A stretch of DNA of 64,000 nucleotides, taken from the NCBI GenBank assembly GCA_951406725.2, contig OX597823.1, forward strand, positions 16,802,001 through 16,866,000, given 5' to 3'. Position 1 is the first letter of the stretch, and each line of letters opens with the position of its first letter. This document shows positions 22,079-63,087 of this stretch, piece after piece. This DNA comes from Octopus vulgaris. Taxonomy: Eukaryota. Made by a program: the position numbers and the translations under genes. The notes beneath the pieces are model-generated. The model did not search any database. It was given only the letters and a program-made list of their open reading frames with translations, and had not been told where the DNA came from.

Positions 22079-22310
22079 TTAATAATATATTTCTGTGGTT
22101 TGCCGTGGAGGGACTGATTTGCTACTGGGTTCTGAGGTGTCATCCACCCTGTCATCTTGCATGGGAATAGAGTCCTTACTTTGAGGAGTTGATGTGTAAC
22201 TATGATTTCTTTTTCTAGCGTCTTGAGGTGTTGATGTGTGACTTTGGCTTTCTTTAGAGTCTCGAGGTGTTGTGTTACTAAAGCTTAAGTTGTTTCTCAG
22301 CATCCGGTAC
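22079..22310 (-). CDS. Gene A last coding exon: cytoplasmic tail (RYRMLRNNL...QTTEIYY*)
   Basis: ttgtctgttgtag| acceptor, phase-2 entry matches the TM exon, TAA at 22081-22079. ATTAAA/AATAAA downstream on the minus strand. Confidence 0.85.
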
Positions 22311-22394
22311 CTACAACAGACAATATATATATAATAGAAATATTAAAATTACTAAGTCTCTATAAAAGAGATTATGGCAGCGTTTACTGGAAAT

Positions 22395-22652
22395 TAATTG
22401 TTATCGCCATATTAATATGGCATTCTTATAGATATAAGAATAATCGCTGCCATGGTCAGCTCCATGAGGCCACCGCCATCAAGATAGCTATTGATACACG
22501 ATCTGTATCCATTATAACCTTCGAACAAGGGATAATGGATACAGATCGTGTATCAATAGCTATCTTGATGGCGGTGGCCTCATGGAGCTGACCATGGCAG
22601 CGATTATTCTTATATCTATAAGAATGCCATATTAATATGGCGATAACAATTA
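22395..22652. repeat. Perfect inverted repeat: 121-bp arms, 16-nt spacer
   Basis: 22395-22515 is the reverse complement of 22532-22652. Confidence 0.95.
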
Positions 22653-22719
22653 TATATATATATATATATGATGATGGGTGAGGGTAAGTGTGTATGTGTG
22701 TGTGTGTACAAAATTCTTA

Positions 22720-23175
22720 GGTGTAGTAGATAACATCTGTTACCTTGGTAACTAAGTTAGCAATGAAGGAGGATGTTCTGAAAGCCTACTTGCTAGAATA
22801 AGAATAGGCTGGGCAAAGTTTGGGTAAGTACTACCTTTGTTCGTCACAAGGGGCCTCCCCGTCACTGTGAAAGGCAGAATGTATGATGCCTGTGTAAGAA
22901 GAACTATGCCTCATGGCAGTGAAGCATGGGTTGTGGCTACAAAGGAGATACGGATGCCTGAAAGGAATGAAACCAGCATGCTCCACTGGATGGGTAATGT
23001 CAGTGTGCATGTATAACCGAGTGTAAGTGATTTGAGAGGAATATTTGGATATGAGCGGCAACAGATGTTGTGTGCAAGAGAGGAGACTGCACTGGTATGA
23101 TCATGTGATGTGTATGGACAAGGACAGATGCATAAAGGAGTACTGATCTGAAACTGGTGGGAAGCTGAAGAAGGG
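22720..23175 (+). mobile_element. Decayed RTE C-terminal fragment
   Basis: ARIRIGWAKF and HGSEAW remnants, same family as the 28 kb copy. Confidence 0.75.
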
Positions 23176-24049
23176 ATACACATACATACATATATTACAT
23201 ACACATTACATACATGCATAGATTACATACATACATACATACAAGCATAGTTGCAATAAGCTTCTCATTTAACATGGAGCTGGCCAGTTGAGGACCTGTC
23301 CAGAATCCAATTACCTGTTGTTGCATGGTTTCTACAGCTAGATGTCGTTCCTAATGCCAACCCCTTAACAGAGTGTACTGGATGCTTTTTACATGCCAAC
23401 TGCACAGGTATGACTACACAGCACTGGCACAAGAGAATTTCGTTTGGCACTGGTCCCTGTGAAGGACAAACCTGTTTGTCTTTGCTTGATGTGTCTTCTC
23501 AAGCACGGCAAATCGCCACTCCCTTGTCATTTCCTCAGTGGGGCCCATAATCCAAAGATCCTTTCTCCCCCATTTCGTCCCACGCATTCCTTGGTCTACC
23601 TCTTCCACAGATTTCCTCTACAATTAGAGCTCAGCACTTCTTTATGCAGCTGTCCTCATCCATATATGCATCGCATGCATTAATGAAATGAACAAAGGAA
23701 AGAAGATATTGAAATACTAATGGGGTTTACCTGTTAATTTTTACACATGTGTGTCATATATATTTATACATAATCAAATGAATAATAACATATGGAGAAT
23801 TGTTAGCTTATTACAGGTATTTCTCACGTAACTTTTTAACAGAAGAATGAGAACATTCCATTATTATAAAAGACCGTGATCATTAGAAGAGAAGTAATTT
23901 GACAAACAAACAAATATCCCAAGAATATAGCAGGGATGTGGCTGAAGTCTGTTGAGGCCAACTATGAAATGGTGTATGTGTGATGTATGTTTGTATGTAT
24001 TTATTGTAGTCATTTGATAAAAGAGTAGAGTGAACTTGTTGAAAGGGGT

Positions 24050-24550
24050 GGGAAACCAAACATTTCAGACACAAGGAAAAACGTTCAGTATAAACCTGTC
24101 GGTGACTAGGTTCCAGGTTCAAATATGAAACGTTGTTACTTTCTGTTTTCTTGAGAAAGTGGATCCGTGGCGTGTATCAATGCCAGATATTGATACATAC
24201 CATGGAATGCCCTGTAGTGTTGGGGTGGTGACAGGTTGTCCCAGCAAATGAAGTACATGGCTTTAAATATGCTCCCAGAAGTGATCAGCAAGGTGTCAGC
24301 CTGTTTCCCCAATGTGCCATAAAGGTGTCACACAATTTGCAGGTGATGCAATATTTAAGGTTAGAAGTTCTGTGTAATAGGATGTTGTCTCTTTGGCCCA
24401 GTGATGGTTGTAGTATTGTTAATGTAGAGACAGGAGTTGCATCGCTGGCAAACACATTAATAAGTGCCTTCTTGCCCGGCTGGCCAATATGGGGCTTCTT
24501 ACTGTAAGATTTCTGGGATCAGAGAGTAGAATACGGAAGGGTTGCAGTGG
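24050..24550 (-). mobile_element. Penelope-like GIY-YIG endonuclease remnant
   Basis: TSNLKYCITCKLC..IGETG..LADHFWEH and C-terminal FIFEPGT.SPTGL..ERFS. Confidence 0.7.
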
Positions 24551-24834
24551 TGTTTATCTGTGAAAGGGAGAAGAGACAGGTAGAAAGTGAGAGAGAGAGA
24601 GAGAGAGCGGAATATGGTTTGTGGCCATGTATAAAGATGGTAGGAGAATATCACATATATCCACACACATACACACACACACAAACACTTTGGTAATGTC
24701 CTCTTTACTATATTTTAGAGAAACACACAGACAAATACAAACACATATAAGCATACAGATTAACACACATAGACACACACACACACAGAAAGGAAATAAT
24801 ATGAAAATAAAGATAAATAATATATAAGATTTAC

Positions 24835-24898
24835 CTGATACCGACAACGATGATGATGATGATCAAGAAAAATATGAAGACTGAAAAGAGGCCAACAA
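24835..24898 (-). CDS. Gene A transmembrane exon (VVGLFSVFIFFLIIIIIVVGI)
   Basis: cttttcttctttag| acceptor, CAG|GTAAAT donor, 64 nt, phase 1 to 2. About 21 uncharged, mostly hydrophobic residues followed by RYRMLR. Confidence 0.88.
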
Positions 24899-24943
24899 CT
24901 AAAGAAGAAAAGAATAAGACATTCAGTGAAACATTATTTTATG

Positions 24944-25787
24944 TACGAGGAGGTAGAGGGGGTAGCCAAAAGAAACTGGAATTTTGCAGTATTATTTTAT
25001 TCATTTAGTTTTACATGTTTACATTTTTATGACCTTCAAAGTATTCTCCATTTCAATCAATGCATCAGTCCAGGGTCGTTTCCCACTGTTGGAAGCAGTC
25101 CTGGAACTCTTCTAAAGTGATGCCTTTTAATATCTCCATCGGTTTTTTCTTCACCTCTCCTGCATCTGCAAATTCTGTAGCACCAGCTTTCATCACCAGT
25201 GATGAACTTTAAAAAAAAAAGTCCACATCAACTTGCAACTCTTCTTTCAGTTGATGACATTCATTCAGTTGTGACTTCTTTTGATCTTCTCTGAGCAAGT
25301 GAGCCACAAATTTTACTGTAACTCTTCTCATTCCTGATTCCTCACTCAAAATTTGTTGACAGCAGCTCCAGAACAAACCAGTTATATCAAAAAGTTTGTC
25401 AATGTTTTGGTGCCTGTCCTCCAAGATCAGTTCATGAATTTTCAGGATGTTTTCATTCGTTCAAGAGGTTGACAGTCACCCTGAACAAGGTTGCTCTTCA
25501 AGTGACGAGTGACCATTCCTAAACCACTTGTAAACTTATGCTTTGCTCATGGCAGCCTCTTTGTAAGCTGTTTGAAGCATGACAACTGTTTCGGCTGCCA
25601 TTTTCCCCAGTAGAAATCGATGAATAGGAGAGAATTACTGCAAAACAGTACGACCTCACTCAATGACACCAGTTGGCAGACTGATGCCTGAGGGTCACAT
25701 CAAGTGGCTTCTATTGGCAGAAGCCTGGACTACAACTGGCTTGTCCTACAGAGAGCGTTTCCGATTTCTTTTGGGTACCTCCTCGTA
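24944..25787 (-). mobile_element. Internally deleted mariner element (second family)
   Basis: TIRs tacgaggaggta..ccaaaagaaa / tttcttttgggtacctcctcgta; remnant GMRRVTVKFVAHLLREDQK (WVPHEL-equivalent). Confidence 0.85.
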
Positions 25788-26663
25788 TATTTAACTGAAA
25801 GCTAATATATTTAATGTAATAATCAAAAACAAATCTATCATCATTTAAAATTACTAATGTGATTTTAAAAAATTAATTAGTTTTATGACAAATGCTGTCA
25901 AAATTGAGAGAGACAATTTCAAGATTAAAATGGATAAAAAAATTGGAGAAATGCCATAGGAAGTGTGTCTGGTCATTGGTAAGTATGGGTGATAACTCTA
26001 GTTATGTTTTGGTCTTATTAGACCTCTTCATTGCACCATGACACAATATCATGAGAAAATGCACAAACCTTGCTTACGTTCATTTGGAGGGAAGTGAGGA
26101 ACTCTCTAAAGAAAGAAGGAGAAAACTGTAAGGGCCTTCTCCCATCATTCACTTGTATTCTATCACAGAATCATTACATGAGTGGACTTTTCACTTGGAA
26201 AATTTTCAAATATGATTTTCAGAGTTTATAATGACAAATTATTTCGCTAAATTCTTTATTATTTTCAAAGTAGATTTGAACAAAGAAGATTATTTGAATA
26301 GAAATATTATAAGAATAGGGTTAAACTCTTTCAGACATTTATGGTGCAAATTAAATTTAGACTTGAGTTTTGATAAAAGATTCCTCCCAGTTATAAAAAT
26401 CTTGTTTGAGAGGCATTAGCTAATATCCATAGCTAAAACAGCCATGACAGAACGTGACCCAGGCATTAGGTGGATACCATTCCAGTGATACTCTGAGAAT
26501 AATTAAAAAGTTTCTGTCCTCCAAATTCACTTGTAGAGTATTGGTTTGTCGGTCCAGGGCTATAGTGAGTTCATCAGTTCAGACTATGGTGTTGTGCAGC
26601 TGGACTGAATGTAATACCATGTGGTTGCAAGATGAAAAATTTACAAAAGATAAAAATAATTAC

Positions 26664-26705
26664 CTATTTGCATATGGTCAACTCCTGGATCAGGTTGGAA
26701 TTTCC
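26664..26705 (-). CDS. Gene A stalk exon (GKFQPDPGVDHMQI)
   Basis: aaaattttttag| acceptor, TAG|GTAATT donor, 42 nt. Only the phase 1 to 1 frame is open. Confidence 0.78.
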   Translation of the reverse strand, partial: GNSNLIQELTICK

Positions 26706-26977
26706 CTAAAAAATTTTTAAAAAAAGTAATGATAAAAAAATAAGTAAAAATTGACAAAAATATCTGTGAAACACTGAAACATTATTATTGACTTGAAAAG
26801 ACCGATGCTGTTTCTCAGTCATAAACTCCATGAACTTGGTGGCACCACTCAATCAGGAGGAAATTCTTGGACAAAAGAAATAACAGATGACAAGATCAAA
26901 TGATGGATAGATATCATCATCATCATCATCATTTGGATGTTCCCTTTTTCCACACTTGCATGGGGCAGGTCTCACTC

Positions 26978-27368
26978 CCATTGGAAGCACTCCGTCGGTT
27001 ACGACGATGAGGGTTCCAGTTGATCCGACCAACGGAACAGCCTGCTCGTGAAATTAACGTGTAAGTGGCTGAGCACTCCACAGACACGCGTACCTTTAAC
27101 GTAGTTCTTGGGGATATTCAGCGTGACACAAAGAGTGACAAGGCCGGCCTTTTGAAATACAGGTACAACAGAAACAGGAAGAAAGAGTGAGAGAAAGTTG
27201 TGGTGAAAGAGTACAGCAGGGATCACCACCATCCCCTGCCGGAGCCTCGTGGAGCTTTTTAGCTGTTTTCGCTCAATAAACACTCACAACGCCCGGTCTG
27301 GGAATCGAAACCGCGATCCTACAACCGCGAGTCCGCTGCCCTAACCACTGGGCCATTGCGCCTCCACT
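26978..27368 (-). repeat. SINE family 3 (gtggaggcgcaatggcccagtggttag...); other copies ~3454-3745(+), 55070-55330(-)
   Basis: tRNA-like head with A/B boxes, repeated copies. Confidence 0.8.
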
Positions 27369-27704
27369 CACTCCAATTAGACCTACCCTCAACAAACTTG
27401 CAATAACCACAACAAAAATATAAAACATCATGTGATCTTTATAAGGAAACTATATGAACTTCTACAACTGATTCTTATGAAAGTTTATCATTTTTTCATC
27501 TTTTCATTTCATTCCAGTATGAAGAGATCATCTTAAACAGCCAAAACCAAGACATATTTTCTTTCTGTTCCCCATTATAAAGTCCTTCCAACATTTACTC
27601 CTTTTCCTTATATTTTCAATACATATTTACATGTATGTATCTACTTAGCCTTATAGATATATAATTGATATTTACAGAAAAACAATACATACATACATAC
27701 ATAT

Positions 27705-30550
27705 CATCATCATTATCATCGTTTAATGTCCGTAGCATGGGTTGGACGGTTTGACCGGGGGCTGGGAAGCCAGGAGGCTGCACCAGGCTCCAGTCTGATC
27801 TGGTAGTGTTTCTACAGCTGGATGCCCTTCCTAATGCCAACCACTCCATGAGTGTAGTGGGTGCTTTTTACATCCCACTGGCTCAGGTATCACAACTACA
27901 ATTTCCATTTGATTTTTCGATATTGATGTACTTGACTCAATAGGTCTCCTCAAGCACAGCAGGTCGCCCTACGATCCAAGGTAAGCATAGCAGGCCGTCC
28001 TGCGATCCAAGGCACTTTGGAGGGCTGGGGCTTCTATGTGAAGCTGGTGCAGAAAACAGCCATGAACTTAGGTTATTTGTCAGGTCTTCGCAGTCACAGT
28101 ATATCTCCAGAGGTCTCGGTCTTTCGTCATTGCCTCTGTGAGGCCCAATGTTCAAAGGTCATGCTTGACCATATATCCCATGTCTTCCTGGGTCTACCTC
28201 TACCCCGGATTCCTTCAACTGTTTGGGAGTGGCACTTCTTCACACATCTCTCCTCATCCATCCGTAGTACATGACCATACCAGCGCAGACGTCTCTCTTG
28301 CATGCCACATCCAATGCTTCTTATGTCCAGCATTTCTCTCAGGGCACTTACACTCTGTTGTGTGTGCACACTGACATTACACATCCAGCAGATCATGCTA
28401 GCTTCATTTCTTTCAAGCCTACGCATGTCCTCTGCAGTCACAGCCCATGTTTCACTACCATGAAGCATGGCAATTCGCACACATGCGTTGTACAATCTAC
28501 CTTTCTGAGCAAGAGACCCTTTGTCACCAGTAGGGGTATAAGCTTTCTAAACTTTGCCCAGGCTATTCATATTCTAGTGGTGACACTCTCTGAGCATCCA
28601 CCTCCACTACTAACTTGGTCACCCAGGTAGCAGAAGCTATCAACCACTTCTAGTTTCTCCCCCTGGAGTGTGATGGAATCTGTTTTCTGAGTATCTGTGG
28701 TGTCTATTGCTCCTGTGCATCCGCCACACACGAAAGCTATCTTCTCGGTTAATTTTCCTTTGATGGTGCTGCACCTCTTATGTGTCCATAGCTTACACTG
28801 GGTACATCTTATGGAGTTTCTCCCTACACCTTTTCTAAAGATTGAGCAGGGCCACCTACCTGAGTGGGGTGTGATGAGTGTGCCTTCCTACTTACTATAA
28901 CTTTGGTCTTTGCTACATTGACTCTATGGCCTTTTGATTCTAAACTTAGCTTCCACAGCCAAAATTTCTTTTCTAGTTCCGGTGGTTATTCTGCTATGAG
29001 GGCCAGGTCATCAGCATATAGGAGCTCCCAGGGGCAACCCATCTTGAATTCCTCTGTTATTGCCTGGAGGACTATAATGAATAAAAGGGGACTGAGGGCT
29101 GAACCTTGGTGGGGCCCTACTTCTACCCAGAATTATTGACTATACTCATTGCCAATCCTAACCTTGCTAACGGCCTCTCTGTATAGGGCCTGTACAGCCC
29201 TTATTAACCATTCATTAATCTCCAGTTTCCACATCGTCCACCAGATAAGGGATCGGGGGACCCTGTCAAAGGCTTTCTCCAAGTCCACGAAAGTTATGTG
29301 GAGGGGTTTGTTTTTAGCTAGGTATTTCTCCTGCAGTTTTCAAACCAGGAATATGGCATCAGTGGTGCTTCTACCCGGCACAAAACCGAACTGCATCTCA
29401 TCTAAGCAGACTCTCTCCCTAATGAGATGGGCTATGACCCTCTCTGTGACCTTCATCCCCTGATCCAACAGCTTAATACCCCTGTAGTTATTTCTATCTA
29501 GAGCATCACCCTTACCCTTGTAGCAGTTGACTATGGTGCTGCTATGCCAGTCATTGGGTATGACTCCATTATGAACTGCATGGTTTACAATGCAGGTGAC
29601 TAAGCCAAAGCCCACACCACCAGATGTTTTAAGCATCTCAGCAGTGATTCCTGATGGGCCGGGGGCTTTTCCTGGCTTCATACCCTTAATTGCTTTATCT
29701 ACTACAGAGCTATCTATTGGGATATCTGGTCCCTCTACCGAGTCAACATTTGGCAGCCTCTCCTCCTCCCATTCATTCTCCACATTCAGCAGTCTCTCAT
29801 AATGGCTTCTTCAAGCCGCTTTCTTTTCAGAAACATTGAAAGCAAGTGCACCATCATCCATGCGGACACATTTCTCTCCTGTGAGATCACAATTTTCTCT
29901 CACACTGTCTAGCAATCCAAAATACCTCAGTTCTTTGGTCCTCACATCGCTGGACATTGGCAAACTTCTTCTTTTCTGCTTTGCCCTTGGCTATGTATAC
30001 CTACTGCCCAGCCTCCCTTTTGGCTACCTGGTACAGTTCCCTGCTACCCCCATCCTTCCAGGCCTGTTTCTTTGCTCTAATGGCTTTGTCTACTGCACTA
30101 TTCCACCACCACGTAACTCTAGGTCTGGAAGGGACTTTGCACCATCCGCAGACTTGGTCTGTGGCACTCAGCAAGCTGTCCCATAGGAATTTCCAGCTAT
30201 CTTCTATGTCCAACGTCTGTACTCCTCCTCCCTGACCATGTGAAGGGTTCTTCAGCTTCCAAATCCTTCTTTTCTGGATTGGTCTGCTTCTTCGTCTCCT
30301 TCTGGCCTTGAGCCTAAAGTCACTAATGACTAGCCTATGCTGGGGGGTACATTCTTCAACCGGGAGGATCTTTGCATTTAAGAGCAACCCTGCATCCCGC
30401 TGTCTGGTGAGTATGAAATCAATCTGGCTAGCAGAGTTCCCTGATTGATAGATTATAAGGTGGCTGTCTGGCTTCCTGAAGTTAGTGTTGCAGATTAAAA
30501 GGTTACATGCAATACAGAATCCCAGTAGCCTAGTTCCCTCATCGTTTCGG
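27705..30550 (-). mobile_element. 5'-truncated RTE-clade LINE (endonuclease remnant, RT, 3' UTR, (GAT)n tail)
   Basis: SQIDFILTR, KAPGPSGITAEMLK, NYRGIKLL, QFGFVPGRSTTDAIF, RRLRWYGHVLRM, GRGRPRKTW; frameshifted. Confidence 0.93.
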
Positions 30551-31789
30551 GTATATATATATATATATATATACAAATTGAGATAGGGGTTGTAAATGCA
30601 ACCCTCCATGGGATAACATATATCCAATATACTGCTAGTGAAGTACCCATATTTATATTTATATTTACTTATATTTATATTCTCTTATACATATTGTACT
30701 TATTGTATCACATTACTCCTTTATGTACACTGTTTTGTTCTACATTATTATGTTTGACGTTAAAGTCTCTTATGTGGTGGTTTAATAAAGCATATGATTG
30801 GATATTATCTGGTAATTGATATTTGATTTGGTTGTATTTCTCCATTTTCTTATTTTGTATATATATATATATATATATATAAAACAAAGTTATTTTATTC
30901 CAAACTGGTAGAAATATAGGAAAAATAGAAGTTGAAAATGTGCTGAGAAAAGTTTAAATATTTTTTGTTAATATATTTAAAGCTTTAACTGGTTTCACAG
31001 TTTAAAATGATTTACAAAAAAAAAATTCTAATGGAAAGATGTGGCTTATGTTGCAGGTGTCTTGCTTCTGACCAATGTTTGAGCTGGCAGAAACGTTAGC
31101 ACGCCGGGCGAAATTCTTAGCAGTATTTCGTCTGCTGCTATGTTCTGAGTTCAAATTCCGCCGAGGCCGACTTTGCCTTTCATCCTTTCGGGGTCGATTA
31201 AATAAGTACCAGTTACTGGGGTCGATATAATCGACTTAATCCAATTGTCTGTCCTTGTTTGTCCCCTCTGTGTTTAGCCCCTTGTGGGTAGTAAAGAATT
31301 TAAAAATTGTTTGAAGTTTGCCCTATTTTTATAGGGAGTTCATAGCGCAAATTAGTATATGTTTCTATAGAGTATAGTCACATGACTTGTCTTGGAAATT
31401 TTTGCAGGTTTCCTGCTACGTCTATGTGTTAATATCAAGTGACAATGTTTGGTGTCATGAGTAAAGGTTGACCGACATGGTTGACTGAAAAATGTCCAAA
31501 CAATCGATGCTCTGAAAGTTTTCTGTCAAATGTTTGTAGAATGAACACATGATTAAGTTTGTAACCTTTTGTATGTTTCCCACAGCACCCGTGTATTAGT
31601 GTCATGTGACAGTATATTTTGCACCTTAAAAGAAGGCCAACACGGTTGAGTGAACATGTTTAGTTATAATCAAGGCACTGTTTGGTAGGAGAGTGGACAG
31701 GAGTCATTTGTGTGTAGTCCAGTGGCTAAAGATTAGGTTGATGATAAGTTGCAGAATGAGTTTTGTGCATGAATAGTTATTTGTGGATG

Positions 31790-32644: not shown

Positions 32645-32675
<31 letters not shown>

Positions 32676-33325: not shown

Positions 33326-33390
<65 letters not shown>

Positions 33391-33722
33391 TTGTTCTGCC
33401 ACTCTCCCACCCCACCCCACACACCATCCACTATGAATCTTAAGTATTCCATCACCTGAACTCTGCAATGGAAAATCCAAATGATTTTATCCTGCATTCT
33501 GGGACGTTACCAAGGAAGTCACTTCCTAACTGGATTTCTTCTGAGTTGCCTGTTCACTACATTATACACCCAACCATTTTATGTTTGTGTATATGTGATG
33601 AAAATATGTGTGTATGTCTGTCTCTGAATGTGTACATGTGTGCCTTCATTTCTACTGATGTTGATGTCTAACATTTAAAATACACAAAATGTAAACAAGA
33701 CGTGTTCCCATATACCACATAC

Positions 33723-33822
33723 CTGTTTTTACTGGAATATATTCTGTCACTAACTGATTCTTAACTTTGCTTTCTTCTTTTACATTGAAATTATGCTCCA
33801 CGTAATCATTCTTCACACTTAT
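33723..33822 (-). CDS. Gene A exon 9 (ISVKNDYVEHNFNV...YIPVKT)
   Basis: ctatcatttcag| acceptor, CAG|GTATGT donor. 100 nt, phase 0 to 1, same length and I(S/T)VKN start as exon 5. Confidence 0.85.
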
Positions 33823-35008
33823 CTGAAATGATAGATTTGAAATATTATTTACACAACTCAGCTGTTTTGAGTACTGATTCTGAGTTCCCTCAGTTCTTTG
33901 TGAAGGTGTTGATCTTATTCGTCCTAGCTCTCTCTATTTCTCTCTATGTTTTGTAGGGAAGAAACATTAAATTCTTTCCGTCTCCCACCTCCCTCCAAGT
34001 CAATCAATCAATCAAACAACCAATAATATTTATATCACACAGTTCAATATATAGATTCTACTGTCTGACTATTCTCCTGTCCAGAAATATCCATCAACAT
34101 GTGATTAGCATTTTTGATCCTAATTAACTCTGAACGTCAATCTGTAGTAGACACTCGTTTGTGAACTGCTTGAAAATGCACCTCATCACTAGGTACACAA
34201 ACCAGTGGCACAGGATATGAACTGTATCATTGAAATCCATCGATTAGATAAAAAGTCATTGTGTTCTGAACATACCTACCATTTCTTAGTCCCTTTATGC
34301 TAAATCCTTCTTTGAACAAGGAGTTAAAACACAGAGAACTGTAAATGAGTGCAAGAATTAAGAGAATGTCTCTCCATGCAACACTAATGGTAGAACATGG
34401 ATTTAGTAGTGCAGAGCAATAGAACAGTCAACAATTATACACAGCTCCCACTGCATGCAGTGGTAAGATGTAGCACTTAGGGGTACCTATTTATAGTAAG
34501 GTGGACTAAACTAGTGAGACTTTAACAGCACTGGAGATGAAGTTTTGATTAGTCACGTGAAAAGTGACACTTTGTGAAGGAAGAGTTTACTTTGAAACAA
34601 GTGACACCTTAATCGTCAATATCATCATCATTATCCACATCACCATCTCCACCACCACCATCATCATCATCATTATCCACATCACCATCTCCACCACCAC
34701 TATCATCATCATCATCATCAGATTGAAGTTTTGGGGGAATAAAGGAGAAAAGAGAGATAAAATTAACAAGATTGTGAGAAAAGACAGCACAGACTTGAAA
34801 GGTAATAGGATGGGTTATTTAGTGGTGGAGGGGCAGGTCAAGGGCTATCCATCATCATAAATATTTTCAGAAAAGATTTTCAAGTTGGCTCTACTAGTAC
34901 TTTGAACCCAGCCATTTTGAAATCTCAAATTCACTAACATAAATTACGCCATTTGCTTTCTTATCATCATTAGATATCTTAAAATGGGTGAATAAAATAT
35001 CATATTAC

Positions 35009-35235
35009 AGCATTGATTCTGATAGGTTTATCCAAAAAATTCAGTTTTAAGCCGGTTATTTTATCATCTTCATATGTCTTCAAATCGAAATGGTCAACAC
35101 AGTTATATCCATGTTTACAGAGATTTTGCCAAAATAAACCTCTAGAAAAAGAAGATAATGTTCCTTGAATTATTTCTACATAGAAAGCTTGCATATGTTC
35201 TTCTGGAGAAATAATTTCCAGATGCCAATTTGTAC
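35009..35235 (-). CDS. Gene A exon 8 (GTNWHLEIISP...KPIRINA), module 4
   Basis: tttttctttatttcag| acceptor, GCT|GTAATA donor, 227 nt, phase 1 to 0. GTNW mirrors the GTHW start of exon 4. Confidence 0.82.
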
Positions 35236-38361: not shown

Positions 38362-38608
38362 GATTGGTTTAGTTGTTCAAAAAATTCTTACTTTCCAGTA
38401 GTCTGCATGAATATTTAGCAGGGATTGTCATGTGTATATTAGCACAACCATATTTTTCTCCAGTAAGTACTCTGGTCATGACAATCTGAAAAATTATGAA
38501 ACAACACACTTTAAGTTGATTAGTTTCATTGTATATTTAAATTAATGCAAACACCTACACTGATATAAGGGCAATCCTTGTCATTTTGAGCTTCATTTTT
38601 ATCATCAA

Positions 38609-41044: not shown

Positions 41045-42014
41045 TTTTGATTCCGGTGGTTATTCTGCTATGAGGGCCAGGTCATCAGCATAGAGAAGCT
41101 CCCAGGGGCAACCTGTCTTGAATTCCTCTGTTATTGCCTGGAGGACTATAATGAATAAAAGGGGACTGAGGGCTGAACGTTGGTGAACCCCTACTTCTAC
41201 CTGGAATTCTTCACAATACTTATAGCCAATCCTAACCTTGCTAACGGCCTCTCTGTATAGGGCCTGTACAGCCCTTATCAACCATTCGTCAATCTCCAGT
41301 TTCCGCATTGCCCACCAGATAAGGGATCGGGGGACTCTGTCAACGGCTTTCTCCAAGTCCATGAAAGCTATGTAGAGGAGTTTATCTTTAGCTAGGTATT
41401 TCTCCTGCAGTTGTCGAACCAGGAATATGGCATCAGTGGTACTTCTACCTGGCACAAAACCGAACAGCATCTCATCTAAGCAAACTCTCTCCCTAATGAG
41501 ATGGGCTATGACCCTCTCTGTGACCTTCATCACCTGATCCAACAATTTAATACCCCTGTAGTTATTTCTATCTAGAGCATCACCTTTACCCTTGTAGACT
41601 TGATCTGTGGCACTCAGCAAGCTGTCCTGTAGGAATTTCCAGCTACTTCTATGTCTGACGTCTGTAGCTCCTCCTCCTTCTCATTAAATTTCTTGATGAG
41701 GATGTCCCCAAATCTCTGACCATGTGAAGGGCTCTTTAGCTTCCAAATCCTTCTTTTCTGGATTGGTCTGCTTCTTGGTATCCTTCTGGCATTGAGCCTA
41801 AAGTCACTAATGACTAGCCTATGCTGGGGGGTACATTCTTCAACCGGGAGGGTCTTTGTATTTAAGAGCAACCCTGTGTCCCGCTGTCTGGTGAGTATGA
41901 AATCAATCTGGCTGGCAGAGTTCCCTGATTGATAGATTATAAGGTGGCTGTCTGGCTTCCTGAAGTTAGTGTTGCAGATTAAAAGGTTACATGCATCACA
42001 GAATCCCAGTAGCC
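41045..42014 (-). mobile_element. RTE LINE fragment, same family, internally deleted
   Basis: EN and RT motifs including LLYADDLAL; near-identical to parts of 28.9-30.5 kb. Confidence 0.92.
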
Positions 42015-42460
42015 ATATGTTTATATGCATATATGGATACAGGACAACACCAACGGTGTACACATGGAATATGTAGACAAACTTGTTAAATACGCAAACA
42101 TATAAAAACAAAAATGGAATCAGGACAAGTAAACACAGAAACGACCCTTCATCAGTTGTCGGCTGTCTATCTACTCCTCATTTCGAGCATTCAACGAAAA
42201 ACAGTTGCTCCCATAAATTCTAAAATAAAATTAAGGACTTATGGAAACAAAAACAAGACAGTGGAAACATACAAGGAAACTGAAGAAAAACAAACAAGGA
42301 GGATAGTTAGATCAGAATGAGAGGAAAATAGTGAATGGTGAGAGAAATATTTCCTTTGAAAAGAGAAAAGATAGAAGATACATACATACATATATATATA
42401 TATTGATCAATAAAGTTTCTCATATCTTCCATCTCTCTCATTAATCATATATATATATAT

Positions 42461-42533
42461 ATAACCCATGCTAGCATGGAAAGCGGATGCTAAACGATGA
42501 TGATATATTTATATATATACATACATATATACA

Positions 42534-42579
<46 letters not shown>

Positions 42580-42724
42580 ACCCATGCTAGCATGGAAAGT
42601 GGATGTTAAACGATGATGATATATATATATATATATATACATACATATACACACACACATATATATATATATAACCCATGCTAGCATGGAAAGCGGATGT
42701 TAAACGATGATGATATATATATAT

Positions 42725-42771
<47 letters not shown>

Positions 42772-42836
42772 ACCCATGCTAGCATGGAAAGTGGACGCTA
42801 AACGATGATGATATATATATATATATATACATACAT
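42461..42836 (+). repeat. Tandem array of four ~100-bp units (RTE tail plus TA/CA microsatellite); fifth unit at ~43941
   Basis: aacccatgctagcatggaaag.gga recurs at ~42463, 42579, 42673, 42770 and 43941. Confidence 0.85.
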
Positions 42837-42837
42837 A

Positions 42838-43910
42838 TAATAATAATAATGAAATTATTGTATACAGTGCTCAGGTGCACCACAACTTGTCAGAAAGTGC
42901 ATATAAAGTACATGCAGTAATGTAGAAATGTCTGGAAAGTGAACATGCTTGTGTGTGTATCAAGTGTAGTGTTGGCAAATCTCAGGAAGCATGGAAGTTT
43001 TGAAGGATGCAGTGCTCCAACAACTAACAACCGATGCCAGCAGTTTGTTCCACGCTTCAGCAACTCTCAGCGTGAAAAAAATGTTTCCTGAAGTCATGGG
43101 AGCTGTGCTGTTTTCTTACTTTGTAAATATGTCCACGGGTGTTAGATGGGTGGAGTTTGAAAAGGTGCTCAGAGTTATTGTTTGTGCGATGGTTGATAAT
43201 TTTATGGGTGTCTGCCAAGTCAGCTGCCAGACGTCGGAGTTTCAATGTGTCCATGCCCAGGGAAGTAAGGCGTTCAGGATATGGCAAATGCCTGATGGAG
43301 GGTATTCTTTTGGTTGCACGTCGCTGAACAGCTTCCAGACGATTGATGTCCTGGGCAAGATAGGGGTTCCAGACCGGTGATGCAAATTCCAGGTGAGGTC
43401 TTACCATAGCTATATAAAGCCGCAGATAGATAGCCGGAGAGCGGCTCACAAAGGATTTGGTGAGTGATGCCAAGACACCCTCAGCCTTCTTGACAATTTT
43501 AGCGATGTGTTTTGTCCAACGCAAATCACTGTCGACAATAACACCCAGGTCACGTTCACTTGAAGACTTTTTGAGACTAGTGTTGTGGAGGGAGTAGGTG
43601 GACGCTGGGTTTCTCCTCCCAAAATGCATGGTGGTACATTTGTCCACAGCCAGCTTGAGTTGCCAGTCCATGATCCACTGCTGCATTGTGTCCAGGTCTG
43701 CTTGCAATAGAGATCCATAGTGTACAGGATTTGACCTCTTTATTTCGAGGTACAGCTTGATGTCATCTGCATATTTCAGCACTGTGGCATTCTTTAAGTT
43801 GGCATCTATGTCATTAACATATGCAACAAATAAAAGGGGGCCAAGAACAGATCCCTGCAGCACACCAGATGTCATCTCATAGGGCGAAGAGTGCTGTCCT
43901 AGAACTGTGA
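42838..43910 (-). mobile_element. Young 5'-truncated CR1-clade LINE with (ATT)n tail
   Basis: [51 protein letters not shown]; long open frame. Confidence 0.93.
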
Positions 43911-44358
43911 CAACACACACACACACACATATATATATATAACCCATGCTAGCATGGAAAGCGGATGTTAAACGATGATGATGATGATGATGATGATATA
44001 TATCTATATATATATGTATGTACATATATGAACAGAGAAACACAAATGTACGTTTGCATACACACACATATGTGTGCAAGTTCATACACAGTGACATACA
44101 GAGAATAACTCCATTTAATGTGAGAAACCTCTGACTGGTTCACTTGCTAGAAATGCCAAATCTCTTTTAAATCAATTCCTACTGTCTTAGAGAAGAAGGA
44201 CACACTGAATAAAGCCTTTGGGTGCATGCATCTGAGAAACTAACATGATGGTCATGACTGGAATGTCTTTCTTTCTTTAGCCAATCAAGCAAGCCCAACC
44301 AGGACTTCAACAATGACAAAAAATTTAACAGAGAAGATAAAAAATACAGAATTCTTAC

Positions 44359-44591
44359 TTGGAATATGTCAATGGCTTCACGAGGGTAACTGAAGTATAC
44401 ATGAACCTCACTCGTTCTTATATTTCCAATATTGGTAAAATCAACAAATATGGGGAGATAAGCTAACTTTTGAAATGTTAGATGATGTAAAGTATCTCTT
44501 TCACTCACACTCACTCCAAGAAATGCTTTTATTTCTATTGTATTTCTTATTAGTCTGGGTTGTGAGGTTAATTCTACTCTCCACACAGAAT
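44359..44591 (-). CDS. Gene A exon 6 (DSVWRVELTSQ...REAIDIFQ), module 3
   Basis: ttcttgtttag| acceptor, CAA|GTAAGA donor, 233 nt, phase 1 to 0. Confidence 0.88.
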
Positions 44592-47976: not shown

Positions 47977-48076
47977 CATTTACCAATAAACATTCATGAT
48001 AAGGAGGTTCAGTAGATGGAGACTGAAGATAAATACAGGAATATATTTCAGAAGTATCCATATTCTTCACCGTGAT
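47977..48076 (-). CDS. Gene A exon 5 (ITVKNMDTSEIYSCIY...HECLLVN)
   Basis: ttattttaatttag| acceptor, ATG|GTAAGT donor, 100 nt, phase 0 to 1. Confidence 0.88.
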
Positions 48077-49630: not shown

Positions 49631-49836
49631 ATCTGTGCCCAGCTGAAATTTTCCTCTTGTCAATAACTTAATTTCTGACTGTGTATTCATTTCCGTAGGA
49701 AGGAGGAATGATTTATTTGATGTTTTAGAATTTGGTCTAAATACTACATCCATTTTAACGTAAGGTTCCAGCTCTAAATTAAACTCATATTCACCATATG
49801 CATGATCACGTTTAACTACAAAGCTCCAGTGTGTCC
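49631..49836 (-). CDS. Gene A exon 4 (GTHWSFVVKR...KFQLGTD), module 2
   Basis: tcttactttctag| acceptor, GAT|GTAAGT donor, 206 nt, phase 1 to 0. Confidence 0.88.
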
Positions 49837-50854: not shown

Positions 50855-50901
<47 letters not shown>

Positions 50902-53759: not shown

Positions 53760-54480
53760 TCTAAAAATAGTAGCGGTCTGAATGATATAGGAGAGTAGGC
53801 ATTGATCGCAGGATGTCTTAGGTGTCATTTTGGCAGTTTGTTGGAATATCGTTTGTTGGTTCATGGAGAGTTTATTTGGATCGTTAAGTTGTTGTTACCC
53901 TGCTTCGTTATATGCTTTATTATTACTCCACAATTATAATGTAAAAATATATCGTCATAACAATTGGCAATACAACAATTTCATTTAAGAACTTTTGCAT
54001 ATGGCATTCAATGTATTACCCCTAAATATATTATATTCAAATTCATGTAATTATTTCATTTGACTTATCTCTCATGAATCACTTCTTTTTTTCATCTAAT
54101 TCTATGAAATATATTGGCCAAAATTATCGGTAACTGTTTTCCTATCTGTAAAAACGTTTCTTATTTGGAATAACTTTACAGATGTTTGTCTTTTCTTATC
54201 GCTGACAAAACAATTGTGAATTGTACCACTAAATGTAGAATAATGTGTCTTTCTTGGGGATTGAAAGGCAACAATAAGATTTGAACTCATAATATGAACC
54301 TTTCAAGTTGAATTCATTAATATTATAGTCACATGCTCGATTGTGCATTTTGTAGGGTGTAGGGGTTGTACAAAGGATAACAATTCCCTGAGGAATTAAA
54401 GGAAAAGAAACAAACAGTAAAAGAACAAACAATAAAGAACAGTTCTGAGGCAAAATCTTACAATTTGATAAGGTCATTGT
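53760..54480 (-). mobile_element. Probable decayed Penelope ORF N-terminus
   Basis: Frameshifted TLSN...LSFV/TPTP...DYNINEF and WSNNKAYNEAG*QQLNDP resemble PLE pre-RT motifs. Confidence 0.45.
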
Positions 54481-54584
54481 ACCTCCTGGACATGGTGCTT
54501 CGCACCGAACACCATACGCTTCTTCAAGATCTTTATTTTCAATAACTATCTACAATAGAAGATCAGTGCAGGAATTTAAAATAG

Positions 54585-56759: not shown

Positions 56760-57290
56760 TCACATGAAGTTCCTGAGGCAGTTGCAGGAGAAATATGTAG
56801 CCAAAGATAAAATCTTTGTACTTGGCTTTTGTTGACTTGGAGAAAGCCTTTGACAGGGTCCCCTGATCCCTTATCAGATGGTCAATATGGAAACTAGGGA
56901 TAGTTTCCAATGAATGGCTGGTGAGAGCTGTACAAACCATGTACAGGGATGCTGTCAGTAAGGTGAGGGTTGGCAATGAGTACAGTGAAGATTTCAAGGT
57001 ACAAGTAGAGGTTAACCAAAGATTGGTCCTCAGGCCTCTCTTGTTCATCATAGTTCTCCAGGCAATAACAGAGGAAGATAGGCTGCCTCTGAGAGTTCCT
57101 CTATTCTGATGACCTTGTTCTTATCGCTGAATCATTACCAGAACTAAAGAAGAGGTATGAAGCAAGGTCTAGAATTGAAGGGTCTTTGAGTTAACCTAGC
57201 AAAGACCAAAGCATTAGTAAGTAGGAAGGCAGACAAATTACAAATCCCTTCAGGTAGATGGACCTGCTTGATCTGTAGAAAAGGCATACT
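56760..57290 (+). mobile_element. RTE RT fragment
   Basis: RQLQEK, AFVDLEKAFDRVP, LLFIIVLQAITEE remnants. Confidence 0.88.
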
Positions 57291-58354
57291 TGCTATTATT
57301 ATACTTGCTATTATTATTCCCAATCACATTTCCACCATCATCAGAAAAGAAGCTGTCTATATCATGGCTTATATTAATTTCAGTGTTAGGGTTATAGGCA
57401 AGGCTTTTGGGTCAATGGTAGTACTACTACTGCTGTGATTTATATTCCATATTAGGCAGAGATGAATGGGATAACTTTAGAGTAGATCTGCTGAAGATCA
57501 AACTATATTTATGGTGATATAGAAAGTTAGAGTCTATGATGGCAAAGAAGGTTTTGGCTAAGCCCTTAAGCTTAAAGAAAAGTGGGGTGTATACCTGTTA
57601 TGGAGATTATATCCCCCCACCATGATGAGTGGTATGTGGCTGTCATTATAAATACTGTCAGTTAGTGTCAGTGTAGGAGAGAGTACAAAAGTAGACAGTC
57701 ATAGCTCTTAAGCTTAAAGAAAAGTGGGGTTTTCTCTTTTATGATAAATGCCCACAGATTTTGCCACATTAAAGACACCGAATAATGCAAATAATAATTT
57801 TCTGAAATAGTGTTCTGAATATGTTATAGATTTTACTGGCTTTAGAGAAGGTCTTTCATACACTTATATAGTTTTGGCAAGGTAGTGAACATTTGTAATA
57901 AATACATTTTCTTCAAAGTCAAAAATGTAGTAAATATTACTCATTGTGCCCACCTACTCTTACTGGAAACTGGAAAAACAGACTTGCGGTAATAGCTGTT
58001 TGAATTTCACTGTTTTTTTTTTCATGCATTGCAAAACAATGAAAGGAAGCTGTTTTAAAAGAAGAATTTTTTAAATCCACGTCTTTAAATGTTGGTATTT
58101 CCACCCCAACCTCTCTCTCTTTCACACACACATTTTATACTTTGTCGTTTTATCTTATTCTACATTTGAAACATATGTAACATGGAATAAAAGAAAAAAT
58201 TTTATGCCTCTCTTCCCTCCTTCAATGTACTTTTCACAATGAAAGAAAAGTCAAAGACCACAAGTGGATGTGTGAAAAACAAAATTTTAATTTTGAAAAG
58301 CATGGTATTTCCACCCTTCTCTCTCCCTCTCTCTCTCACATACACACACACATA

Positions 58355-59060
58355 ATAATACCTCACCAGTACCCATAACCACTTAGCATCAGCATTCAAT
58401 TTATTGGTAAGTGATCCAGAATCAACACCAAATTGGATGCTGGAAGGACAAACCACCCTAATTCCCCAAAACAAAGACACCGTACACTCACAAAATTACA
58501 GGCTAATAACATTCCTATCAACATCCTGCAAAACCCTAACATCAGTCATCTATAGCTGGCTTATAAAACACCTGGAAAACAACAATGTTTTACCAGAAGA
58601 ACAAAAGGAGTGCCATAGAAGGAATTAGAGAATTAGACCACAATCGTTGCCTGTACAAATATCTAGGAATAGATGAAACAGCTAAAATACAACACATAGA
58701 AATGAAAGAGAAAATTAGGAGACAGAAAACAATATGAAAACAGAATTACAAAAGATACTGAAAAAGAAATAGAGATAAAAATCACTTCATGGCCAATACC
58801 CTGCAAGGCTTGACAGAGAAGAAGTGAGCCTAAGTAAAAACCAACAATGGCTCAAAGGCTCTGGACTAAAAGCCGAAACTGAAGGACAGATTCTCGCTGC
58901 ACAAGACCAATGCCTGACTACAAACAATTATAAAAGCAAAATAATGAAAACAGGCCCTAACACCAAATGCAGAATGTGCAACCAGCAACAATAAGACGGT
59001 TGACTACATCATCATGGGCTGCCCAGGCCTTTCCAAATCTGAATATATATACAGATAAGA
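58355..59060 (+). mobile_element. R4/Dong-clade LINE remnant
   Basis: PNWMLEGQTTLIP..NYRLIT, LHGQYP, LKAETEGQILAAQDQ, and KCRMC...IIMGCP zinc-knuckle region. Confidence 0.75.
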
Positions 59061-59651
59061 CCATTAATTAAGAACGATAATTTATAAATTCCTTTGGCTA
59101 AAGTACATAAAACATATGTATGTATTGAAGGGACAGGTATTAGTACAACAAAAAGATACAAAGGTAATTTAAAGATAAAGGATAGGGGATACTGGTAGAT
59201 TGATACAATTGTTTAAAATTTAAAAGTTAAAGGTTTTATTATTACCAATCAGAGCTGATAATTAGAGTGACGCTAAGAAATAAAAATAAGATAGAGTGAA
59301 TTAAAAAGTAAAGAAAGTTTAATGTTACCAATCAAAGCCTAAAATTAGAGTGAGAGAGCAAAGACTAAAGTTAGAGTAAATAAAATTTATTTATGCCATT
59401 CACTGTTCACCATCACACCAAATTCTTCTTGGGAAAAAAACCCCCCACAAAATATTGTGAAATTTAATGGGAACATACTGCATATAAAATACATTATTTA
59501 CCTGTTTCAGCTTATTTCTTTTAAAATACCATAATTCTTAATGACACAGGAGTAATAGAATCTGTGTGTATGCGCACGCGCGCATGCATGTGTGTATGTG
59601 TGTCCGTGTATGTATGTGTGTGTGTGTGTGTGTGTGTTTATTTTAATTTAC

Positions 59652-59848
59652 CTGGAACTCCTTAGATGGATTAACTTTGATAAAATTTGGTTTTGTTTCG
59701 TTGGCCAAGTCAATTTCAGTTTCGTAACAGTTCTGCTTGCTTGGACATGCTATGGTTTTAAAAATTTTCGAGTTCAAAGTAATGTGAACTGAAAGCTTAT
59801 GTGCCTCAGTGTAACAAATTTCCACATCCCATTTTCTGGCCTGGGTAT
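59652..59848 (-). CDS. Gene A exon 2 (TQARKWDVEICY...NPSKEFQ), module 1
   Basis: ttatttgtcag| acceptor, CAG|GTAAAT donor, 197 nt, phase 1 to 0, open frame. Confidence 0.82.
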
Positions 59849-59965
59849 CTGACAAATAATTTGAAAAAATGAAAAATGTTTATCAATTATTTTAAAAACA
59901 TCTTTAAAATATTTATACTGTGAATAGTTATTCTATTCTTCTCCTCTCTAGTATTTTATTACCAA

Positions 59966-60363
59966 CTAGTAGCATAGCCCAGCGTTGCTCGTGTTTGTAA
60001 GGGAAATAACTATATAAGCATTTTTAGAGAGTTATAGCCAAAAAATAGCAAAAAAATGCATTAAAAATGGAAAAAAAATTATGGTAAATTTTTTTTTTAA
60101 ATCGTTGACTCATCGTAGATATTTTTAGAGAGTTTCTTCCCTTATATAATAGCGAAAAAATGCATTAAAATGGAAAAAAATTATGGTAAATTTTTTAAAA
60201 ATCGTAGCCTCATCGTAGACGCGTGCTAATACCCAGAAGGGCTCGATATGAATCACGACTATAAGATACCCGGTTTTGGTTAAACTGCACCACAAAATGT
60301 GGGAGTAGTTAGGAATCTAAATCGTAGGAGACAGACACACAACTTCACTTTTATATATAAAGA
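59966..60363 (-). mobile_element. Second Helitron-like copy with an internal tandem duplication
   Basis: Same termini and body as 38609-38948. Confidence 0.7.
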
Positions 60364-60556
60364 TTTCAGCCAGACACTGTGTCCGTGATGGGGCACCACC
60401 CTAGTTATGCAAATCAAACAGTGAATATCATTGGAATTTTTTTGGAAAACATCAAAATCTGAATAATCATGTCAATTGGAACTCTTCAAACATTTACTTT
60501 CAAGAAAATATGTTTTTTCTATATATATATTTTGTTCATGAATAAATCTCAAACGG

Positions 60557-61620
60557 TCTTTTGTACATGCCACCTGCACAGGAGCCAGTCCAGTGGCACT
60601 GGCAATGACCTCACTCGAATATTTTTTCACGTGTCACTGGCACAAGTGCCAGTAATGCGACGCTGGTAACGATCACCTTCGAACGGTGCTTTTTGCATGC
60701 CACTGCCACAGACGCCAGTCAGCTGCTTCTGGCAATGATCACGCTCGGATGGTGCTCTTAGCGCTCCACTAGCATGGATGCTAGTCATTGAATTTGATTT
60801 CACTTGCCTCAACTGGTCTTTGCAAGCAGAGTTGAGTGTCTAATGAAGGAAAGGTATGCATAAGTGGGCTGGTTACACCCCTGGCATAGGCCACAGGTTA
60901 TGGTCTCAATTGGATTGCCGGGTCTTCTCAAGCACAGCATATTTCCAAAGGTCTCGGTCACTAGTTATTGCCTCGGTGAGGCCTAATGTTCGAAGGTCGT
61001 GCTTCATCACCTCATCCCAAGTCTTCCTGGGTCTACCTCTTCCACAGGTTTCCTCAACTGCTAGGGTGTGGCACTTTTTCACACAGCTACCCTCATCCAT
61101 ACTTGCCACATGACCACACCAGCACAGTTGTCTCTCTTGCACACCACATCTGATGCTTCTTAGGTTCAACTTTTCTCTCAAAGTACTTACACTCTGTCAA
61201 GTATGCACACTGACATTACACATCCAGCAGAGCATACTGGCTTCATTCCTTGTGAGCTTACACATGTCCTCAGCAGTCACGGCCCATGTTTCACTGCCAT
61301 GTAGCATGGCTGTTCATACACATGCATCTTACAGTCTACCTTTTACTCTGAGTAAGAGGCCCTTTGTCAGCAGCAGAGGTAAGAGCTCCCTGAACTTTGC
61401 CCAGCTTATTCTTATTCTAGTAGCTACACTTTCAGTGCACCCACTCCCGCTACTAACTTGGTCGCCTAGGTAACGGAAGCTATCAACTACTTCTAGTTTT
61501 TCTCCCTGGAATGTGGCAGAAGTTGTTCTCTGCACATTTTCAGTGGTTATTGCTCCTGAGCATCTGCCACATTCATACATTTGCCCAGTTAGCCTTCCTT
61601 TGATATTGTTGCACTTCTGA
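60557..61620 (-). mobile_element. RTE LINE 3' fragment
   Basis: LEVVDSFRYLGD, GRGRPRKTWDEV, followed by the repeat-containing 3' UTR. Confidence 0.9.
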
Positions 61621-63032
61621 ATGGGTTAAAATGACTCAATAATTAACTACACAAATCCTTATATGTGTAATAAAGTCAAGACTCGATTATCACAGATTAT
61701 GATTAGATTATGGAATTTCGTTATAATATGGAAATAAAGCAAAGCTGTCGTTGGCAAATGAATATGACCTGGTAACATGTACCAGGTTTTTTTTTTATTT
61801 GTTTTAGGTTGCTCTGTAGTCACAGGTAGACATAGACATCCTCTCAGATCTCCTGCCCTTAATATAGTGTAACATCAAGGATTTAACAGCTGAAGGGAAG
61901 GAGGGCTGCACCAACACTAAGCTCCAGTATACTCAGCTGAAAAAAAGGTACCAGCACTGGATTGGTACTTATTTTCAGCTGTGTCATGAAAGGGATCTCC
62001 TTGTTCAAGGATGCAGTGCATCACTCTGTCTAAGAATTGAACCCATGAACCTATGTTTGTGAACCCAACATCCTGAGCCTTCACAAAAGTTTAATAAATA
62101 GCAAGAAATTGGTTTGTTATTATGAAATTAAACTGATTTTAGTTCAATAAATTTAAAATGGAATTTTTGAAAATTATGATTTAGAGTAAGAATTGTAATT
62201 TTGGCAGAAAACACTTTTTTATGTTAGGGTGGGGTGAAGAATGTTCTGCCATCATAGAACCTCACAAAGAATGGTGCAAACAAGCTCCCTTTAAATGGGA
62301 AAACTAAGTTCAAATGACTGCAGTACAGGAATTCTGCAATAGCATTAACCCTTTAGTGTTTAAACCAGCCAAATCCGGCCCAATATATTCTACATGTTTT
62401 ATATTCAAACTGGCGATATCTAGCCTCTCACTCCTAACCTACAATGCCATTCTGAAAATAAACAATCACATCATTGAAACCTCAAAGCTATAAGATAATG
62501 CATGATTAATTCAAAACAATTTGAGTGAAAAAGTATTACATTTAACAGAGTATTCTGAACACTAAAAGGTTAAACTTTGAGCTACCATATTTCTGTTGAA
62601 ATGCACTGCCATTGTCTATTAATTTTGGAAGTTGTGAAGAATTCATTTAAATAACTTTGTCATTATGAAGCTAATGTTTGGAACATGACATGAGATTTTG
62701 ATGGCAGGTTTTACTTCAGATCATTTTAAAACAGGGAATGTCTATGATTCAACCAGGAGTGACGTTATTACATGGTTTGGGATCAAAAAGATTAAACCAA
62801 GTGATAAATAAAGTCAACCACCCAAGAACAGGAACAGAAATGAACTCTACAACAAGCTACCACAGAATCCCCAACTATCCAGTTCCACTCTTTAGACTTT
62901 AGCTGACCTGAGACTGTTGTACAAGACCCTAATCCAGGGTACCATACAGTAGAAACTGACCTGAAAACAAACCTCTTCATTATACACAGCCATATATAAT
63001 GATTGCAGAAATAAATAAATAAGAGAACTTAC

Positions 63033-63087
63033 AAAAGAAATGAGGTAAAACAAAGAATAAAATACTGCAATAGGAAAGAACTAGCAT
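63033..63087 (-). CDS. Gene A coding exon 1: start codon and signal peptide (MLVLSYCSILFFVLPHFF)
   Basis: gccATG at 63087 and strong donor T|GTAAGT (phase 1). Acceptor tttctttacag| at 63244 with no upstream ATG in the exon. Joined to the next exon it gives MLVLSYCSILFFVLPHFFYTQA-RKW, a plausible signal peptide. Confidence 0.72.

Follow-up and report, generated by a model that had tools for sequence, protein, structure and literature searches.

The stretch of DNA analysed here, 64,000 nucleotides of the Octopus vulgaris genome (assembly GCA_951406725.2, 2.80 Gb in 227 contigs; contig OX597823.1, positions 16,802,001 to 16,866,000; hereafter the window), carries on its minus strand a 12-exon gene for a predicted surface protein of four tandem modules. 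The gene belongs to a clustered, diversifying set of at least 15 paralogs, a point missed by an earlier note on the same DNA that was drawn from the letters alone. PLAT domains are known as accessory lipid- or protein-docking domains of enzymes and cytosolic proteins; here, modules 3 and 4 are predicted to adopt the PLAT fold in the ectodomain of a protein with predicted type I single-pass topology. In one pair of paralogs, the ratio of nonsynonymous to synonymous divergence (dN/dS) is 1.74 (p 0.006). We propose, with confidence that is evenly balanced, that the protein serves as a variable binding scaffold within an octopod family of recognition receptors. The fold is known and so is the receptor logic; their combination is undescribed.

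Results

Gene structure and predicted topology

The coding frame is open from the ATG at 63087 to the TAA at 22079 and runs through 12 exons (Table 1), with GT-AG ends at all introns and consistent phases (1, 0, 1, 0, 1, 0, 1, 0, 1, 1, 2), as the earlier note had proposed; the 1548 nt and 515 amino acids given there fall 90 nt short of the recovered coding sequence (CDS), which measures 1638 nt with the stop codon (545 codons, 545 amino acids). Eight of the nine motifs quoted in that note lie in frame in single minus-strand exons, and INAISVKN arises across the joint of exons 8 and 9. Small exons were placed by a splice-site scan, the 42-nt exon at 26705-26664 was fixed from contig joints, and a candidate exon at 24557-24503 was rejected, as it adds an in-frame stop.

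The four joints of exons 7-11 (38392/35235, 35009/33822, 33723/26705 and 26664/24898) are bridged, with CT..AC ends, by contigs from X15 and X16, two of the four runs (one study, kind not on record), which were matched to the window at 90% likeness. None of the listed runs is on record as RNA. Splicing is shown for exons 7-11; the joint of exons 11 and 12 was not among the 15 of 610 joints listed. Because exons 7, 9 and 10 of the neighbouring paralog are 78, 77 and 55% identical to those of the gene, and so fall below 90% likeness, the bridging contigs represent the gene or its ortholog. The joints among exons 1-7 rest on splice signals, on the neighbouring paralog, which has conserved all 12 exons, and on automated database models with the same exon joins (XP_036361684.1 for exons 4-8; XP_036361598.1 and CAI9728742.1 for the paralog). 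In runs X1 and X2 no joint of the gene was among those listed, which is uninformative on expression. The 3' untranslated region (UTR) was placed from one X15 contig that spans 21500-22174 and then continues.

Hydropathy reveals the hydrophobic N-terminus (mean Kyte-Doolittle value, KD, 1.83 over residues 1-19), the single strong transmembrane (TM)-like helix (best window from residue 447, KD 3.47) and the cytoplasmic-type tail that had been claimed for the protein. The structure model places helices at 2-23 and 440-468, the exon 11 helix is directly followed by RYRMLR and a polar tail of 77 amino acids, and the ectodomain carries 11 cysteines, Cys196 and Cys211 hardly varying across the family, and four N-glycosylation sequons. 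From hydropathy, model helices, RYRMLR and sequons, a type I single-pass topology is predicted. Each module is made of a large and a small exon in phases 1-0-1, a symmetrical pair that can be duplicated or lost in frame.

Reading frames run on briefly into introns 8 and 9 (window 35003-35008 and 33684-33722, minus strand), and the database models P0001, P0003, P0004 and P0007 of family members end at those read-throughs without a TM helix; such ends could be soluble isoforms or annotation artefacts.

A clustered family in octopods

A search of 1.84 billion proteins returned 25 matches, two unnamed and 23 named, the latter all 'uncharacterized' or 'hypothetical' and from O. vulgaris, O. sinensis, O. 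bimaculoides and Argonauta hians only. The lineage-specific origin suggested earlier is thus supported for the libraries searched, which did not include a direct search of squid or cuttlefish genomes, and no named match is a well-characterised conserved gene. XP_036361684.1 is a fragment of the O. sinensis ortholog (255 of 259 residues identical), CAI9728740.1 is the O. vulgaris prediction for the gene's own locus, partial and mis-joined, and CAI9728742.1 is that for the neighbouring paralog; no full-length model of the gene was among the database matches. No paper was found for 12 gene ids of family members, three supplements of PMC9712504 contain none of six family ids, and 'PLAT' is absent from the available part of the main text of PMC9068888 (Albertin 2022). 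The literature searched, which left most subscription papers and several supplements outside, holds no account of the family or of an ectodomain built from PLAT alone.

In the genome, the first exon of module 3 is present in 16 copies at 15 loci (2 on C10, 10 on C12, 3 on C26). This number is a minimum. Intactness was checked, by mapping each exon, in five more genes, and some loci look partial or rearranged. Database models carry three, four or five modules, and Trp and Cys positions as well as the fold are kept as far as Argonauta. The neighbouring paralog is an inverted head-to-head duplicate that has kept all 12 exons, with its start codon about 14 kb away. In a quick tree of 23 rows, built on the first 480 residues with support by the Shimodaira-Hasegawa-like approximate likelihood ratio test (SH-aLRT) only, the gene and its neighbour group with their O. 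sinensis orthologs (support 100) to the exclusion of three O. bimaculoides proteins, so the duplication is probably younger than the O. bimaculoides split.

Several relatives have unusual layouts. The paralog at C12:84,042,725-84,058,198 (+) has an extra exon pair and five modules, one of them a hybrid of a module 2 first exon and a module 1 second exon. Very young tandem paralogs at C12:79.83-79.90 Mb share blocks that are 92-98% identical; one of these carries the first exon of module 3 twice, and where module 2 begins, the first half of its first exon holds a concentration of their differences. An isolated module-2 exon fragment at C4:14,595,359-14,595,472 (-), 71% identical to the neighbouring paralog and without matching splice ends, is a dispersed gene piece.

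Divergence between paralogs and tyrosine motifs in the tails

Compared by the Nei-Gojobori method, the gene and the neighbouring paralog show dN 0.197 and dS 0.113, with dN/dS values of 2.07, 0.94, 3.06 and 1.61 for modules 1 to 4. Aligned introns differ at 549 of 20,113 bases and ectodomain exons at 196 of 1,242, these differences falling on codon positions 1, 2 and 3 in the numbers 74, 77 and 45. The synonymous share was 0.147, as against 0.263 in neutral simulations with the intron mutation spectrum, the minimum of which was 0.160 in 1,000.

The tails of relatives are enriched in a tyrosine motif, [ILV]Yxx[LIVMP], with 13 occurrences in 13 tails (examples are DIYENL, IYEEL, EQLYTQP and EIYANM), compared with a mean of 2.1 and a maximum of 8 in 5,000 shuffles. 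Acidic-hydrophobic-tyrosine sites of this kind resemble Src-family substrates and SH2 docking sites. The gene's own tail contains no immunoreceptor tyrosine-based inhibitory, switch or activation motif (ITIM, ITSM, ITAM); it and the neighbour's tail have Thr-Pro repeats and a terminal TEIYY only.

Fold of the modules

For the predicted structures of modules 3 and 4, PLAT domains give the best superpositions, well ahead of Ig, FN3 and CBM folds, and each of the two is modelled as a beta-sandwich of eight strands that can be superposed on solved PLAT domains; the ectodomain was not assigned an Ig fold. The PLAT guess of the earlier note, and its check against Ig and FN3, thus held for these two modules. 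For modules 1 and 2, with about eight strands each in the model and barely probed by structure searches that gave one best range per chain, we infer that they are probably PLAT-like. The best structural match is the C-terminal PLAT domain of lipoprotein lipase (20% identity, 107 aligned residues). Foldseek E-values were poor, and the compact matches were PLAT proteins; LILRB-type chains, the only ones with E < 0.001, had a root-mean-square deviation above 20 A and were rejected as array-to-array artefacts. An ESM Atlas search gave no usable match for the ectodomain, and the PDB gave 0 matches by sequence with a single-protein query and 4 by profile (E 0.3-1.6), three of them over the TM region.

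No PF01477 match above cut-off was obtained for nine exon peptides or for four proteins, and no Pfam PLAT match for any of 26 aligned members within the listed 25 of 40 families; the Pfam matches seen for exons and proteins were weak, below cut-off and mostly on TM helices, and were rejected. None of 21 genome-wide PF01477 matches lies at any of the family's loci. The canonical PLAT loop motifs examined (GTDA-like, F..G..D.F, HDNSG and W.L..V) are visible in the genome's own PLAT exons. Two of the canonical patterns occur in 0 of 26 family proteins, HD[NS].G only in the cytoplasmic tails of two, and W.L..V in 10, there only on the first strand of module 4, which is not its canonical position. 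Among pairs of modules, D1-D2 alone beat all 40 shuffles. When each module was compared by profile with nine canonical octopus PLAT domains, no probability exceeded about 1%; module 2 against a PLAT domain on C19 marginally beat all 40 shuffles, in one of 12 comparisons, and given such values we claim no sequence link to canonical PLAT.

Discussion

A proposed recognition-receptor family and its alternatives

Under the proposed role, a two-exon, phase 1-0-1 PLAT module would have been multiplied behind a signal-peptide exon, and the duplicated genes would then have come under selection to bind different external partners, the likeliest being surface molecules of microbes or parasites, or the surfaces of non-self cells. 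Binding may lead to tail tyrosine phosphorylation and recruitment of SH2 adaptors in those members that carry acidic-I/L/V-Tyr-x-x-hydrophobic motifs, and the gene and its neighbour, with terminal EIYY and Thr-Pro repeats only, may send a weak or a different signal, or serve as modulators or decoys. As a more tentative extension, octopods may have built at least 15 variable tyrosine-signalling receptors from exon-shuffled PLAT, which would here play the part of an Ig-like scaffold in immune or self/non-self recognition. Members would include activating-type, modulating and possibly soluble ones, and diversity would arise by module gain, module loss and half-domain swaps.

A number of observations weigh against this role. 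The tyrosine pattern was picked after inspection and the 13 tails are related; six of them lack it, including those of the gene and its neighbour, and strict ITIM, ITSM or ITAM sequences occur in two, one of which adjoins the membrane. By profile comparison the four modules resemble one another weakly (3.5% probability for the best pair, D1-D2), module 2 taken alone has a dN/dS of 0.94, and a pair of C12 genes shows 0-2 amino-acid differences in three of seven exon comparisons. At four-fold sites 8 of 98 positions differ, a higher rate than in introns (p 0.006), which suggests intron conversion or an older split, and the contrast between introns and exons may overstate the speed of change. The differences between the paralogs show no concentration in predicted loops (85 of 236 strand positions versus 56 of 178 others), and O. 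vulgaris and O. sinensis orthologs differ at 4 of 259 and 5 of 385 residues, giving no sign of present allorecognition-type hyper-polymorphism. Because orthologs are nearly alike and changes are spread over strands and loops, the burst looks like specialisation after duplication, not standing hyper-polymorphism.

Tandem beta-sandwich rods, clustering and post-duplication divergence would fit equally well with a paralog-specific adhesion or identity label, in which ectodomains would bind not microbes but their own kind on a facing cell, in the manner of Hydractinia Alr1/2, for tissue sorting or for self or gamete recognition. The absence of Yxx-hydrophobic motifs from the gene's tail agrees with such a label, and isoform-specific homophilic binding of Alr1/Alr2 is described in the available part of PMC9546547; nevertheless, the near-identical orthologs speak against allele-level self labels or species-specific gamete labels, and about 15 loci make a small code. 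We consider this explanation unlikely. Less probable still is a lipid or lipoprotein receptor whose modules keep membrane or lipid binding and capture lipoproteins, vesicles or microbial membranes, an option raised in the earlier note. The match to lipoprotein lipase favours it, as does the description of PLAT/LH2 as a mediator of membrane attachment in the available part of PMC10892792, but a common fold proves no function, a fixed lipid ligand would not predict strong diversification, and the missing Pfam match, together with canonical patterns that are out of place or absent from the ectodomains, counts against it.

We regard it as clearly improbable that this is a surface protein with an accessory or sensory function in an organ specific to octopods (sucker, skin or gland), diversified for chemical or prey cues and not for immunity. 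Confinement to octopods in the libraries searched is consistent with this, and expression may be uneven, as two runs have deep junction-bridging contigs and two others only UTR pieces of low depth, depth being a poor measure; yet the protein has no seven-transmembrane or channel part, and the relatives' tyrosine-motif tails point to kinase/SH2 signalling. Relaxed or neutral divergence of duplicates, with the intron/exon contrast arising from gene conversion, would accord with the excess divergence at four-fold sites and the partial or rearranged look of some loci, but is very improbable in view of dN exceeding dS, a synonymous share below all the neutral simulations, two paralog frames intact across 12 exons, and the conservation of fold, Trp and Cys positions as far as Argonauta.

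Comparison with known systems

The PLAT/LH2 domains of lipoprotein lipase (6ob0, 6u7m), lipoxygenases (3fg4, 1lox, 3o8y), pancreatic lipases (2oxe) and Rab6IP1 (3cwz) share 6-22% identity with the octopus modules, which, unlike them, have no Pfam match and lack the canonical motifs; the octopus protein further differs in having no enzyme domain, in its four tandem copies on a predicted type I membrane protein, and in its Cys pairs and N-glycosylation sequons. LOXHD1 is not known to have a signal peptide or a TM helix. It is a tandem array of 15 PLAT repeats, described as nuclear and then as cytoplasmic in the available part of PMC9729270, and the tandem PLAT array is what the two proteins have in common; the octopus protein, with four non-canonical modules between two hydrophobic segments, is not a LOXHD1. 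A separate canonical multi-PLAT locus on C11, the exons of which match Pfam PLAT, is the probable octopus LOXHD1, and most of its exons viewed break at positions other than those of the family modules.

Closer in organisation, judging by the accessible portion of PMC9546547, is Hydractinia Alr, which likewise comprises clustered, lineage-restricted single-pass proteins with a fold recognised by structure prediction and tyrosine motifs in part of the tails, but has Ig/FN3 folds in place of PLAT, true ITAMs and ITIMs, high allelic polymorphism and demonstrated homophilic binding. The Biomphalaria PTC1/GRC, PTC2 and LG5R clusters (PMC13712769, available part) are also molluscan single-pass gene clusters and proposed recognition receptors; they differ in the Tie2-ligand-binding/EGF/lectin signatures of LG5R and in being tied to parasite resistance by mapping, a link for which the octopus family has no counterpart, and the protein library search found no sequence similarity between the two. 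In Plasmodium CCp3/LAP1, as far as covered by the available part of PMC10892792, LH2/PLAT stands among the adhesion domains of a multidomain protein, but as one LH2 with LCCL and SR domains and not as a PLAT-only single-pass array.

If the recognition role is true, a PLAT-fold receptor family would join Ig, LRR, lectin and EGF on the short list of building blocks for diversified animal surface receptors. It is established that octopuses have no adaptive immunity. A young, positively selected, octopod-restricted receptor cluster would provide concrete candidates for how octopuses tell partners apart, and for a family that is invisible to Pfam and labelled 'uncharacterized', the fold assignment would make about 15 orphan genes per genome testable.

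Features of the window and other PLAT loci in the genome

Table 1. Exons and 3' untranslated region of the gene, in window coordinates
Feature	Position	Strand	Description
Exon 1	63033..63087	-	55 nt, end in phase 1; start codon, predicted signal peptide; all 18 residues shared with the neighbouring paralog
Exon 2	59652..59848	-	197 nt, phase 1-0; module 1, first part (KWDVEIC)
Exon 3	54462..54549	-	88 nt, phase 0-1; module 1, last strands
Exon 4	49631..49836	-	206 nt, phase 1-0; module 2, first part (HWSFVVK)
Exon 5	47977..48076	-	100 nt, phase 0-1; module 2, last strands; near-invariant Cys196 and Cys211
Exon 6	44359..44591	-	233 nt, phase 1-0; module 3, first part, predicted PLAT fold
Exon 7	38392..38485	-	94 nt, phase 0-1; module 3, last strands; contig joint to exon 8
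Exon 8	35009..35235	-	227 nt, phase 1-0; module 4, first part, predicted PLAT fold; contig joints on both sides
Exon 9	33723..33822	-	100 nt, phase 0-1; module 4, last strands; contig joints on both sides
Exon 10	26664..26705	-	42 nt, phase 1-1; short stalk; joined to exons 9 and 11 in contigs
Exon 11	24835..24898	-	64 nt, phase 1-2; predicted transmembrane helix (hydropathy); contig joint to exon 10
Exon 12, coding part	22079..22310	-	232 nt; 77-aa tail, three TPQ/TPR-type repeats, C-terminal TEIYY, stop codon
3' untranslated region	21500..22078 (at least to 21500)	-	AATAAA at 21949, 21727 and 21471

Broken reverse-transcriptase/endonuclease-like frames, recognised by eye as repeats of the long interspersed nuclear element (LINE) type, lie on the minus strand at window 28130-30684 (intron 9) and 41063-44139 (intron 6).

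Canonical PLAT exons were viewed for 12 of the 21 genome matches. One of these, on C19, shares the design of the family modules: a 248-nt phase 1-0 exon that begins with KWRLEV and ends just past the W.L.. strand is followed by a candidate 88-nt phase 0-1 exon (the two together at C19:57,202,194-57,206,780, +), so placed that the split falls at the strand boundary of the family modules; one exon of the probable LOXHD1 on C11 (99,271,612) ends at a similar place to the family's module exons. We offer the C19 PLAT, as a lead only, as a possible donor or sister module; the profile comparison was not significant, and a host gene was not found in 160 kb of candidate exons.

An intronless open reading frame (ORF) of 627 amino acids on C23 (about 3,592,140-3,594,020, +) contains one canonical Pfam PLAT domain (E 1.6e-8) between a hydrophobic N-terminus with a Thr/Asn-rich stretch and a long Ser/Thr stalk with a C-terminal hydrophobic stretch. 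It was not matched in the family searches and is probably a mucin-like membrane protein with an extracellular PLAT domain, unrelated to the family, so the O. vulgaris genome has more than one case of an extracellular PLAT on a probable membrane protein. At C20:70.11-70.47 Mb, six single-exon canonical PLAT matches in mixed orientation have the look of a lipoxygenase gene cluster at its start.

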